In this document: one piece after another, positions 36,307 through 39,300 of the stretch | Position numbering within the stretch: the stretch's first letter is position 1 | Layout of the letters: every line of letters starts with the position of its first letter | NCBI GenBank assembly: GCA_965219625.1 | Contig: OZ244782.1 | Coordinates: 2,343,551-2,407,550 of the forward strand | Direction of reading: 5' to 3' | DNA: 64,000 nucleotides | Source: Candidatus Multivoraceae bacterium | GTDB lineage: Bacteria > Acidobacteriota > Thermoanaerobaculia > Multivoradales > Multivoraceae | Notes under the pieces: generated by a model | What the model saw: only the letters and a program-made list of their open reading frames with translations | Database searches by the model: none | Told to the model about the DNA's origin: nothing | Program-made: the position numbers and the translations under genes

Positions 36307-39300
36307 ATGACGGACAACGACCACGCGCAGAACGGCCACTCGAACGGCCACCACTCGAACGGTAAGGGGCGGGTCGATTTCTCGACCATCGAAACGACCC
36401 TCGGCATCCCGAACCTGATCGGCGTGCAGCGGCGCTCGTACGACCGCTTCCTGCAGATGAACCTGCTCTCCGAGGAACGTGAGAACCGCGGTCTGCAGGC
36501 TGTCTTCACGGGCATCTTCCCGTTCTGGGATTTTCGCGAGACCTGCTCTCTCGACTTCCTCAGCTACTCGATCGGCGACTGGCAGTGCCGCTGCGGGGAA
36601 CTGAAGGGCCTCGAGTACCTGCGCATGTCCTGTACGAACTGCGGCGCGAAGATCATGACGGACCACCCGCTCGAGGACAGCGTGAACTGCACGAGCTGCG
36701 GCGCCGTGAACGCGAACCGTGTCACGAAGTGCGATACCTGCGGCGGACCGGTCGAGTTGCAGCTCAAGTACTCCATCTCGGAGTGCCGGGAGCGCGGCAT
36801 GACGTACGCCGTGCCACTCAAGGTCACGTTCCGCCTGTTCGTCTACGACAAGGACCCGGAGACCGGCACGCGAATGATGCGGGACGCGAAGGAGGAGGAG
36901 GTCTACTTCGGCGAGATCCCGCTGATGACGGACACCGGCACGTTCATCATCAACGGCACGGAGAGGGTGATCGTCAGCCAGTTGCACCGGAGTCCCGGCG
37001 TCTTCTTCACCCATGACAAGCGCGTCTACCTGGCGAAGATCATTCCCTACCGCGGCTCCTGGGTGGAGTTCGAGTACGACCAGAAGGACATTCTCTCCGT
37101 CCGCATCGATCGTAAGCGGAAGTTCTACGGGACCGTGTTCCTGCGCGCCCTTGGTCTCGAGTCGAACGAGGAGATTCTGCGGAAGTTCTACACCGCGCTG
37201 CCGCTCGAACCGGTTGGCGACGGAGCGTATCGGCTCGGCCTCGTCCCCCGGGTTCTCGAGCGGGAACGCCTCCGTGACCGCTCGAGTCGCGGCGTTCGCC
37301 ATCAGTACGGCATCTTCGCCGGTCTGACTCTGGACGAAGCGGCGATCGAGCGCCTCGATGCGGGCGACCCGATCGAAGCCGAGGTCGGGCCGCAGGAGCT
37401 CGAGTCCGCGATGCTGATCGCCGACGTGGTCGACGAGGACACCGGCGAGGTGCTGTTCGAGGCGAACGACCCGGTCCCCGAAGACCTGGATCAGCAACTC
37501 GAAGGCCGGAATCACAACGACGTCGAGGTCTTCTTCCCGGACTGGGAGCTGTGCGGCGCGACGATTTCGAACACGCTGGCCAAGGACGGAACCAGGGACA
37601 TCAGAGATGCCCAGATCGAGATCTACCGGCGCATGCGGCCCGGCGATCCACCCACCCACGAGAGCGCTCGCTCGCTGTTCTACGGCATGTTCTTCGACGC
37701 GAAGCGCTACGACTTCTCCCGGGTGGGCCGGTTCAAGTTCAACATCAAGCTCGAGACGGACGTTCCGGTCGACCAGAAGACCCTGTCAGCCGACGACTTC
37801 TATCGGGTCATCGAGTATCTGCTCCAACTGCAGAAGGACGTCGGTCGCGTCGACGACATCGACAATCTCGGGAACCGTCGCGTGCGCGCCGTCGGCGAAC
37901 TGCTGGAGAACCAGTTCCGCGTCGGCCTCGTGCGGATGGAGCGGGCAATCAAGGAGAAGATGTCCGTTCATCAGGACATCGACTCGGCGATGCCTCACGA
38001 CCTGATCAACTCGAAGCCGGTGATCGCGGCGGTCAGGGAGTTCTTCGGTTCGTCGCAGCTCTCTCAGTTCATGGACCAGACGAACCCGCTGTCCGAGGTC
38101 ACGCACAAGCGACGGCTGTCGGCGCTCGGTCCTGGCGGCCTGTCGCGGGAGCGCGCGGGGTTCGAGGTCAGGGACGTCCATGCCTCGCACTACGGGCGGA
38201 TCTGCCCGATCGAGACGCCGGAGGGGCCGAACATCGGCCTCATCTCCTCGCTTGCCACCTATGCCCGGATCAACGACTACGGCTTCATCCAGAGTCCGTA
38301 CAAGAGGGTCGAGAACGGTCGGGTGATCGACCACTTCAAGGTGATCCGGCCGGGCGACGGCTCCTTCTCGCTGGGACAGATCGTCTCCGGCGACGATCTC
38401 GAAGCGGAGAACGGTCGGATCGAGAAGAGCGGCGGCCGCCTGGTCGAGGCCGAACCGCATGCCTTCTATCTGACCGCCTGGGAGGAGGAGAAGTACATCA
38501 TCGCTCAGGCGAATGCCCGGGTCGACGAACGAGGCTACCTGTTGAACGAGCGCCCCGTGGCGCGTGCTCGCGGCGACTTCGTCACCGTCGACCGTGACCG
38601 CGTCGACTACATGGACATCAGCCCGAAGCAGCTCGTCAGCGTCGCTGCCGCCCTGATTCCCTTCCTCGAGAACGACGATGCGAACCGGGCGTTGATGGGA
38701 TCGAACATGCAGCGGCAAGCCGTGCCGTTGCTGCGCTCGGACTCGCCGATCGTCGGTACCGGGCTCGAGTCCATCGTGGCCCGCAATTCGGGCGCGGTCG
38801 TCCTCTGCCAGCGTGCCGGCATCGTGGATTCGGTCGACGCGGACCGGGTCATCGTGCGAGTCGAGGGCGCGGATCCGGAGACCGGCGCGCCGCGCGAGTT
38901 CGGCGCCGACATCTACCAGTTGGCCAAGTTCCGGCGTTCGAACCAGAACACCTGCGTCCACCAGAAGCCGCTCGTACGGGAGGGGGCTTGGGTCGCGCGC
39001 GGCGACGTTCTGGCCGACGGCGCATCGACCGACGAGGGTGAGCTCGCGCTGGGCCGCAATGTTCTCGTCGCGTTCATGCCCTGGCGCGGCTACAACTTCG
39101 AGGATGCGATTCTGGTCTCCGAACGACTCGTTCGCGATGACTCCTACACCTCGATCCACATCGAGGAGTTCGAGATCGAGGCGCGGGACACGAAGCTCGG
39201 ACCCGAGGAGATCACGCGGGACATTCCGAACGTCGCGGAATCCGCGCTCTCCGACCTCGACGAAAGCGGAGTGATCCGCATCGGGGCCTCGGTCAAGGCG

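Follow-up and report, generated by a model that had tools for sequence, protein, structure and literature searches.

Background

Lineage-specific insertions are the places where bacterial RNA polymerases (RNAPs) differ from one another, and it is there that phylum-specific regulation and antibiotic selectivity arise. In the beta subunit, the characterised inserts betai4 (SI1), betai9 (SI2) and betai11 are beta-rich or helical modules (PMC2939025), and the 2024 survey of RNAP insertion domains, with its BEAN, HABAS, BBM and SBHM types, describes beta-rich or helical modules as well and makes no mention of zinc, ribbons or cysteines (PMC11515920); all of these sit at sites other than the one considered here. 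As for zinc modules, the zinc-binding domain (ZBD) of the beta-prime subunit is a knob at the RNA-exit opening that binds the HK022 put RNA, keeping the enzyme anti-paused (PMC9378689), and a beta-prime-like zinc ribbon has been described in phage non-virion RNAPs by Iyer et al. 2021 (PMC7824862). Herein we analyse a stretch of 64,000 nucleotides from Candidatus Multivoraceae bacterium, a member of Acidobacteriota (contig OZ244782.1, positions 2,343,551 to 2,407,550), hereafter the window, whose rpoB gene codes for a beta subunit (RpoB) with an extra cysteine-rich segment in its N-terminal region. A first-pass annotation of the window had taken this segment for a zinc-ribbon-like insertion of about 60 residues; our results bear this out, and go beyond it with a new observation, namely that the first half of the segment resembles the beta-prime ZBD.

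The catalogue of beta inserts by Lane and Darst reportedly runs from betai1 to betai12, with Acidobacteria included and betai1-3 upstream of betai4, and it may list the present segment among the last three as an uncharacterised insert. The searchable literature, whose reach does not extend to that catalogue (Lane & Darst 2010), gave no description of a zinc-ribbon insert in an acidobacterial RpoB, and Cavalier-Smith 2006 and the BEAN/HABAS paper treat other RNAP inserts only. The insert offers a handle on transcription in Acidobacteriota, a dominant soil phylum that is biochemically almost unstudied.

A cysteine-rich insertion in the beta1 domain

Comparing the RpoB of the window by phmmer with 54 distinct solved beta subunits (Proteobacteria, Firmicutes, Actinobacteria, Thermus, Bacteroidota, cyanobacteria, plastids and archaea), we found that the match ends at residue 89-91 and restarts at 152-158, with a target-side gap of only 0-3 residues where the alignment is shown residue by residue (79->82 in 7ye1, 83->86 in 7f0r, 82->87 in 6j9e), which corresponds to a net insertion of about 61 residues (92-152/153). 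For E. coli beta only the downstream stretch is reported in the alignment, with query residue 155 facing residue 80, and the insertion point lies at about E77-V79 of that subunit. No counterpart of the segment 92-153 was found in any of the 54 subunits; the solved structures matched include no acidobacterial RNAP, and the best of them are proteobacterial (Caulobacter, E. coli, Vibrio, Pseudomonas). The translation of 36577-36765 reproduces exactly and in frame the peptide of the first-pass annotation, and the flanking blocks are as quoted there. Neither E. coli beta nor any other solved beta subunit has the segment, which is a genuine insertion when set against them. Its placement in the beta1 (protrusion) domain also holds, as the insert lies within Pfam RNA_pol_Rpb2_1.

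The insert carries four Cys pairs, C94-x-C96, C109-xx-C112, C128-xx-C131 and C142-xx-C145 (Table 1). It thereby holds 8 of the 15 cysteines of RpoB, for which the hypergeometric P is 4e-8 for a pre-set window of 62 residues, and since the four pairs are invariant in relatives, this clustering is well beyond chance. Moreover the insert has the features by which a lineage-specific insertion of RNAP beta is recognised, namely it is in frame, lies between universal blocks, is absent from most phyla and is conserved in its clade. With the predicted structure described below, it is quite probably such an insertion with a zinc-ribbon fold, a judgement that covers mainly the structural identity of the domain.

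Conservation and selection

In a scan with one genome per bacterial species 494 relatives were found, and the best 80 of them, comprising 42 distinct sequences, were taken for comparison. Except for one record of an 'uncultured bacterium', all 80 are labelled Acidobacteriota, mostly Thermoanaerobaculia or Ca. Multivorans with a few Holophagales/Holophagae or Vicinamibacteraceae, and in every one of them the insert is in frame with all eight cysteines. By these relatives the organism of the window belongs to Thermoanaerobaculia. In 76 diverse homologues, where the identity of the segment goes down to 30%, G90, W92, the eight cysteines and V149 are invariant, and the same positions are invariant in a closer set of 74 aligned sequences, which conserves N135 (>=90%) and several glycines (>90%) as well. 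The eight cysteines, G90, W92 and V149 are also kept in four very divergent RpoBs; the annotated order of CxC, CxxC, CxxC, CxxC is therefore not only present here, it is invariant even in very distant relatives.

The ratio of nonsynonymous to synonymous substitution rates (dN/dS), obtained from 52 of the 80 genomes, is 0.20 for the insert, where the universally conserved blocks next to it have 0.08-0.09, and the GC content is 0.651 in the insert and 0.643 in the rpoB gene. The insertion is real and under purifying selection, and judged by the sequences compared it is ancient and fixed across Acidobacteriota and Ca. Babeliales.

Two length variants were seen near the first knuckle. In two Ca. 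Multivorans genomes, 8 (L032:3001-3438) or 4 (L033:3001-3426) extra residues stand directly after CxC (PKEKREKGLG and SEDGKG, respectively; see also P0007), which means that this loop tolerates change of length. A read-derived protein (P0123) has a tandem duplication from the second to the third Cys pair, with 13 cysteines in total; this is a single sequence and probably an assembly or read artefact.

Predicted fold of the insert

AlphaFold2 was run on RpoB 1-620 with the alignment of 74 sequences, and on the insert with short flanks alone. The pLDDT over the insert is 79-86 in the former and 84.7 on average in the latter, and both models have a beta-hairpin turn at every Cys pair (91-93/100, 106-108/115-117, 125-127/134-136 and 141/148-152), with one short helix at 102-105. 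Cys pairs at hairpin turns are the mark of zinc ribbons, and in the models the four invariant pairs are all predicted to be so placed, with strands or bridges on either side. The chain leaves after the beta1 strand 80-89 and rejoins before a helix at 157-163 and a long hairpin at 168-182/189-205. Structure prediction, which had been proposed as a check on the zinc-ribbon claim, hence gives a small domain of good confidence, and we regard a conserved, folded Cys-knuckle domain on the beta1 surface as confidently predicted.

As to the family of the fold, Pfam finds on the insert only zinc-ribbon families, all of them below threshold (RanBP2-type, DZR, Zn_ribbon_3, S27e, TFIIB). For example DZR (PF12773), whose gathering score is 27.3, reaches 19.2 bits with the insert alone and 14 bits when the full protein is used, and PF00641 scores 18.4 bits on the isolated insert (E 0.0013), with a gathering score of 27. 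Profile searches of the PDB sequences give E-values of 0.002-0.1 for matches to single ribbons, and the 6e-8 of DZANK1 is the sum of five weak repeats. The second half of the insert (module 2) weakly matches eL40, RBM10, ZNF265, RanBP2, RNF31 and DZANK1, and the insert also matches an HVO_2753-like small zinc-finger protein, annotated zinc-ribbon RNA-binding proteins and LysW. A Foldseek search of the insert model against the PDB gave nothing significant (best E 0.46); its list consists mostly of zinc-ribbon or zinc-binding modules, with A12.2 of Pol I at the top followed by LysW, the Csl4 ribbon and archaeal ribosomal ribbons among others, and further of RBR RING2, RanBP2 fingers and beta-prime chains. 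The model of 620 residues matched RpoB only. By none of Pfam, PDB sequence and Foldseek did the insert match BBM1/BBM2, SBHM or BEAN/HABAS modules, and its predicted secondary structure is that of four knuckle hairpins with no barrel or sandwich, in keeping with the earlier view that the module is unusual beside inserts of SBHM/BBM1 type. Where that view had left a choice of one or two zinc ribbons, two fit the insert better than one. All of the matches are of zinc-ribbon type though sub-threshold.

Accordingly we picture the domain as follows. About 61 residues would have been spliced into a surface loop of beta1, after strand 80-89 and ahead of the short helix that leads to the long beta-hairpin, and they would fold as two small Cys4 zinc ribbons in tandem, with strands 91-93 and 150-152 rejoining both ends of the insert at the insertion point. 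Two structural zinc ions would be bound, and by analogy with the ZBD and RanBP2 fingers the probable wiring is C94/C96/C109/C112 for the first site and C128/C131/C142/C145 for the second. If both sites form, the number of metal sites per enzyme rises from two to four.

Resemblance of module 1 to the beta-prime ZBD

The first half of the insert (module 1) fits with exact spacing the ZBD motif [DN]-[WY]-x-C-x-C-G-x11-C-x2-C-G. Of the 177,635 distinct PDB sequences, the six that best matched a profile of module 1 were all ZBDs of beta-prime or of cyanobacterial gamma subunits (E 0.008-0.08), aligned without gaps over 27 positions including all four cysteines, whereas other zinc proteins match the second knuckle only. 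With hhalign, module 1 against the beta-prime ZBDs of the window and of two metagenome contigs (L081 and L082, described below) gives Prob 96% and P 3e-9 over 29 gapless columns, while the controls, module 2 against ZBD (37%) and module 1 against module 2 (52%), give partial, gapped alignments. Moreover, with the Cys columns fixed and the other 23 columns permuted, the observed similarity is reached in 0 of 100,000 trials (z = 5.7, p <= 1e-5). By the hhalign controls, the permutation and the PDB ranking alike, the similarity to the ZBD exceeds what generic zinc ribbons show.

Module 1 lies in beta, within the protrusion, and not on the N-terminal clamp and RNA-exit side of beta-prime, so it can only be a paralogue-like copy and not the ZBD itself; and because the genome retains its own ZBD in rpoC, the beta module adds to it and does not replace it. 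Going by the sequences, descent of the two from one source is probable, at somewhat better than even chances; the similarity falls short of proof, given a short motif rich in Cys and E-values that are marginal on the scale of the whole database. If true, such descent would amount to a domain exchange between the two large subunits. In phage records, tblastn gave weak matches only (E >= 0.09), to one RNAP subunit of a jumbo phage, one transposase and five unannotated records, and no donor domain emerged from them.

Distribution across bacteria

The insert with short flanks as a query gave only 6 fragments; for a wider set a longer query and a profile of divergent members were used. All RpoB N-termini from metagenomes and genomes retain the insert down to 56% identity, and their labels include Ca. 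Acidiferrales. A HMMER search with the insert and 15-residue flanks against 1.84 billion cluster representatives gave 179 proteins at E <= 0.001, and nearly all of the 150 listed among them look like RpoB N-termini. The divergent full-length bearers P0276 and P0250 are 54% and 45% identical to the RpoB of the window, that of E. coli being 51% identical. By source name, the divergent bearers belong to Aminicenantes/Saccharicenans, Blastocatellia and Geothrix (Holophagae), and the group of P0250 is Candidatus Babeliales in the phylum Dependentiae/TM6 (MDR3550909.1). One insert-bearing fragment (P0297, MEI6614324.1) comes from a metagenome-assembled genome labelled Chrysiogenales, which would make a third phylum if the label is right. 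In two contigs, one Babeliales-like (L081, GC 0.41) and one Aminicenantia-like (L082), the insert stands within a normal rplKAJL-rpoBC operon.

Some irregular records were met on the way. In L081 and L082, which are long-read metagenome contigs from ENA, frameshifts split rpoB and rpoC into several called genes, and many of the RpoB 'fragments' in databases, which are 250-580 aa long on contigs that measure hundreds of kb, arise in this way and are not true truncations. An extremely divergent RpoB-like protein from a JGI metagenome (P0261, 1219 aa, 'hypothetical protein'), with about 29% identity over 150 aa, low complexity and an AT-rich flavour, has LGNWHCRCGDLKGYKHRHEYTCKCG..., a module-1-like motif, at the same place.

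Among the matches listed, the library of 1.84 billion representatives gave no free-standing source family for the insert. The only matches other than RpoB in it are Cys-rich repeat proteins (P0274, P0264 and P0234; E 1e-6 to 1e-8), one of which has RanBP2-like repeats, GDWNCSCGELNFASRVNCRKC, likewise with a CxC first knuckle.

The insert had been proposed as a phylogenetic marker, and its presence in Acidobacteriota plus Dependentiae supports such a use. In fact TM6 was first placed with Acidobacteria (McLean 2013), other placements being Deferribacteres and Patescibacteria, and its affiliation has been called open by Yeoh et al. 2016 (PMC4776705). The insert common to Acidobacteriota and Ca. 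Babeliales is an independent, alignment-free new character for placing this phylum.

Possible role on the enzyme surface

Within the long hairpin that follows the insert, A194-K195-E196 is by eye the counterpart of I117-K118-E119 of E. coli beta. The beta1 domain adjoins the upstream DNA duplex, across from the clamp, and serves as a dock for CarD and UvrD/PcrA, with the edge at I117-K118-E119 contacted by CarD-RID. The beta-prime ZBD, for its part, has been tied in part of the literature to complexes with RapA, Q-lambda, RbpA, Rho and AfsR. In E. coli, Mfd-RID docks at the same I117-K118-E119, which lies on an edge strand exposed by the beta1 sheet, and the hairpin 168-182/189-205 corresponds to beta1 strands 3 and 4 of that study (Westblade et al. 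2010, PMC3001067). By analogy with the beta-prime ZBD, the insert might then be an extra docking surface on the very domain that docks Mfd. Its two modules, about 25 A across, could reach adjacent DNA, RNA or factors, and the partner would be lineage-specific, a protein or structured nucleic acid being more probable than DNA backbone in general. We put forward this docking function tentatively.

Across relatives the insert has a net charge between -3 and +9, with a median of +1 and a value of -2 in this genome. This variable charge, together with the replacement of the basic ZBD loop KYKRxKHR by ELKGLEYLR, argues against generic binding of nucleic acid as a polyanion. It is thus at least as likely that the insert has a protein or a structured RNA for a partner, or that its role is purely structural. 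A generic basic patch for binding nucleic acids was considered and rejected on the variable charge.

A bolder scenario, which we think rather unlikely, would join these threads: module 1 would be a true copy of the ZBD that reached the beta protrusion, along with a second ribbon, in a common ancestor of Acidobacteriota and Dependentiae (perhaps of Chrysiogenota too), and would give the enzyme a second ZBD-like hub. A lineage-specific partner, be it RNA, DNA or protein, would dock there, and the hub could for example be a built-in substitute for open-complex stabilisers of CarD/RbpA type. From the side of the beta pincer, it would presumably face the clamp-borne beta-prime ZBD across the cleft, and the insertion would then be a rare genomic change in support of the disputed relationship between Acidobacteria and TM6.

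Alternative readings

Several points weigh against the reading of a tandem of ribbons, one of them akin to the ZBD and exposed for docking. No Pfam zinc-ribbon model reaches its gathering score, the best being 19 bits against 27; the PDB-wide E-value of the ZBD match is marginal (0.008); hhalign may overstate significance on Cys-rich motifs of 30 residues; and a common knuckle geometry could have been reached by convergence. Moreover, variable net charge and the small number of surface residues conserved family-wide weaken any single conserved binding function, and the profile of the whole insert matches archaeal Rpo12/RpoP over its positions 19-46 (C109..C131) with E 0.002.

The last point bears on how the cysteines are wired. 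In a nested arrangement, C109/C112 and C128/C131 would form a distal ribbon like that of Rpo12/RpoP, and C94/C96 and C142/C145 a basal zinc clasp joining the ends of the insert. The HVO_2753-like protein, the zinc-ribbon RNA-binding proteins and LysW match over similar spans, the outer knuckles are flanked by strands 91-93 and 150-152, and an insertion in a loop needs both its ends close together, which a basal clasp would achieve. However, module 1 aligns without gaps to the ZBD over all four cysteines, and these are the zinc ligands of the ZBD (C70, C72, C85 and C88 in E. coli beta-prime); its score with the ZBD is far above the controls, and module 2 has the complete RanBP2/eL40 pattern including the conserved Asn. 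The nested wiring is hence the less probable of the two, by about one half; were it true, the likeness of module 1 to the ZBD would be convergent.

As to function, the rival to a docking surface is a passenger domain, that is, a zinc-stabilised knob with no ligand of its own, fixed early and kept only since its removal would destabilise the folding of beta1 or the assembly of RNAP. What is conserved family-wide is almost entirely Cys, Gly, Trp and the hydrophobic core, charge is not conserved, dN/dS is twice that of the flanks, and indels are tolerated both by the linker and by the loop that follows the first knuckle, all of which would suit such a domain. Nevertheless, all eight cysteines persist in Ca. 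Babeliales, whose genomes are reduced and would usually have shed what can be dispensed with, and the non-structural residues K95, K100 and R106 are highly conserved within Acidobacteriota, so we consider this explanation unlikely.

Another idea is that of a redox or metal sensor, in which oxidative or metal stress would make the Cys4 sites give up zinc or form disulphides, with transcription modulated as a result, as zinc-thiolate switches do; eight thiols do lie close together on an exposed domain of an essential enzyme, and Acidobacteriota live across oxic/anoxic gradients. Yet structural Cys4 zinc ribbons are usually inert, the same motif is kept in anaerobes, aerobes and the intracellular Babeliales, and the Pfam and PDB-sequence searches gave no similarity to known redox-switch families, which makes a sensor very improbable. 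Iron in place of zinc, either as a rubredoxin-like Fe(Cys)4 site or as an Fe-S cluster, deserves even less credence: pairs of Cys4 knuckles do have the ligand geometry of rubredoxin, and a miniaturised rubredoxin and the rubredoxin-like ribbon of ChsH2 are among the weak matches, but a CxxCxxCxxxC motif as in ferredoxins is absent from the insert, zinc proteins make up all of the best matches, and the closest relative, the beta-prime ZBD, binds zinc.

An artefact of frameshift or chimeric assembly, which the first-pass annotation had named as a ground for withdrawing its claim, is ruled out, as the same frame, position and Cys pattern recur in 80 species genomes and in >200 metagenomic proteins, and the segment is in frame in 80 of the 80 best relatives and under purifying selection. 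A mobile element or intein in rpoB was also considered and dismissed, since Pfam finds no intein or transposase domains and the segment has gene-typical GC content and is under purifying selection.

The rpoB gene and its surroundings

The gene belongs to the classical cluster rplK-rplA-rplJ-rplL-rpoB-rpoC-rpsL-rpsG-fusA, on the + strand at 33.9-48.2 kb of the window. The open reading frame listed at 36019-40593, the only long one with the RpoB Pfam domains 1, 2, 3, 45, 6 and 7, opens with a TTG at 36019; homology begins just past a Met at 36307, which judged by sequence is the likely start and gives a protein of 1428 aa. The N-terminus so defined (36307-36370) is a His/Asn/Gly-rich tail, predicted to be disordered (pLDDT < 50) and not conserved in relatives, with five His close together beside the zinc-rich domain. 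For rpoC, the listed frame begins at a GTG at 40389, inside rpoB, and the real start is probably the GTG at 40605, which has AGGAGG before it and lies 12 nt past the rpoB stop (40591-40593).

Table 1. Features of rpoB, of its insertion and of the beta-prime ZBD, with positions in the window
Feature	Position	Strand	Basis
rpoB (RNA polymerase beta, 1428 aa)	36307..40593	+	Pfam Rpb2_1,2,3,45,6,7; E 1e-66 to solved beta subunits
beta1-domain strand, residues 80-89, leading into the insert	36544..36573	+	AlphaFold2 strand; aligns to Caulobacter/Pseudomonas beta ~70-79
Insertion W92-L153, 62 aa, eight Cys	36580..36765	+	Translation, phmmer boundaries, Cys count
Module 1, G90-M117, G-D-W-x-C94-x-C96-G-x11-C109-x2-C112-G-x-x-[IV]	36574..36657	+	ZBD-like by PDB profile matches, hhalign and column permutation
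Cys knuckle 1, C94-R-C96	36586..36594	+	Invariant in alignments
Cys knuckle 2, C109-T-N-C112	36631..36642	+	Invariant; strands 106-108 and 115-117 on either side
Variable linker, residues 118-124, TDHPLED	36658..36678	+	Least conserved part of alignments, indels in some lineages
Module 2, S125-L153, C128-x2-C131-G-x2-N135-x6-C142-x2-C145-G-x-P-V149	36679..36765	+	RanBP2/eL40-type zinc-ribbon spacing; sub-threshold Pfam; PDB-sequence matches
Cys knuckle 3, C128-T-S-C131	36688..36699	+	Invariant; strands 125-127 and 134-136 on either side
Cys knuckle 4, C142-D-T-C145	36730..36741	+	Invariant in alignments
A194-K195-E196, counterpart of E. coli beta I117-K118-E119	36886..36894	+	By-eye correspondence (E. 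coli VKDIKEQEVY); AlphaFold2 strands 168-182, 189-205
The genome's own beta-prime ZBD in rpoC	40800..40880	+	Sequence

Comparison with known systems

CxxC...CxxC ribbons on the polymerase surface are also found in archaeal and eukaryotic enzymes, namely Rpo12/RpoP/Rpb12 and A12.2/Rpb9/TFIIS, of which Rpo12 matches the insert at E 0.002 and A12.2 tops the Foldseek list; unlike the insert, these are separate polypeptides at other positions of the enzyme, and for common descent there is no evidence. In Bacillus phage vB_BspM_AgentSmith (MW749006.1), the 'putative RNA polymerase beta subunit' AGENTSMITH_102 has SCQCGELKGNYYLNTVCSRCNSKV near its N-terminus (L084:433-900), which resembles module 1 in its CxCGELKG start and a nearby CxxC ('CQCGELKG...CSRC'); however, the tblastn E-value is only 0.09, the spacer is one residue shorter and the phage subunit is of a different type.

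Module 2 is like the ribbons of RanBP2, eL40 and NZF (Pfam PF00641 and relatives), with which it shares the exact spacing C-x2-C-x3-N-x6-C-x2-C and the conserved Asn, and it is unlike them in having Val126 where the family has Trp two residues before the first Cys, and in being embedded in a polymerase subunit. Module 1 shares with the beta-prime ZBD the unusual CxC first knuckle, the 12-residue spacer and the CxxCG second knuckle, and beyond the cysteines the two have positions in common as D/N-W-E-C-x-C-G-x-x-K-x-[LM]-x-[HY]...C-x-x-C-G-x-x-[VI]; both are zinc modules on the surface of RNAP, the beta one by prediction. In contrast to the ZBD, which belongs to beta-prime and to its clamp and RNA-exit side, module 1 is found in beta, on the beta1 protrusion. 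It is without most of the basic residues that the ZBD carries in its loop, and it is fused to a second ribbon.

To sum up, the insert as a whole is like betai4/SI1, betai9/SI2 and betai11 in being an in-frame surface-loop domain between shared regions, restricted in phylum and useful as a rare genomic change. It differs from them in its site, at about residues 77-79 of E. coli beta in beta1, and in its predicted fold, which is that of Cys4 zinc ribbons and not of beta-beta-prime modules or sandwich-barrel hybrids. The beta inserts characterised so far comprise a handful of beta-rich folds, to which a double zinc ribbon on beta1 would add a new class.

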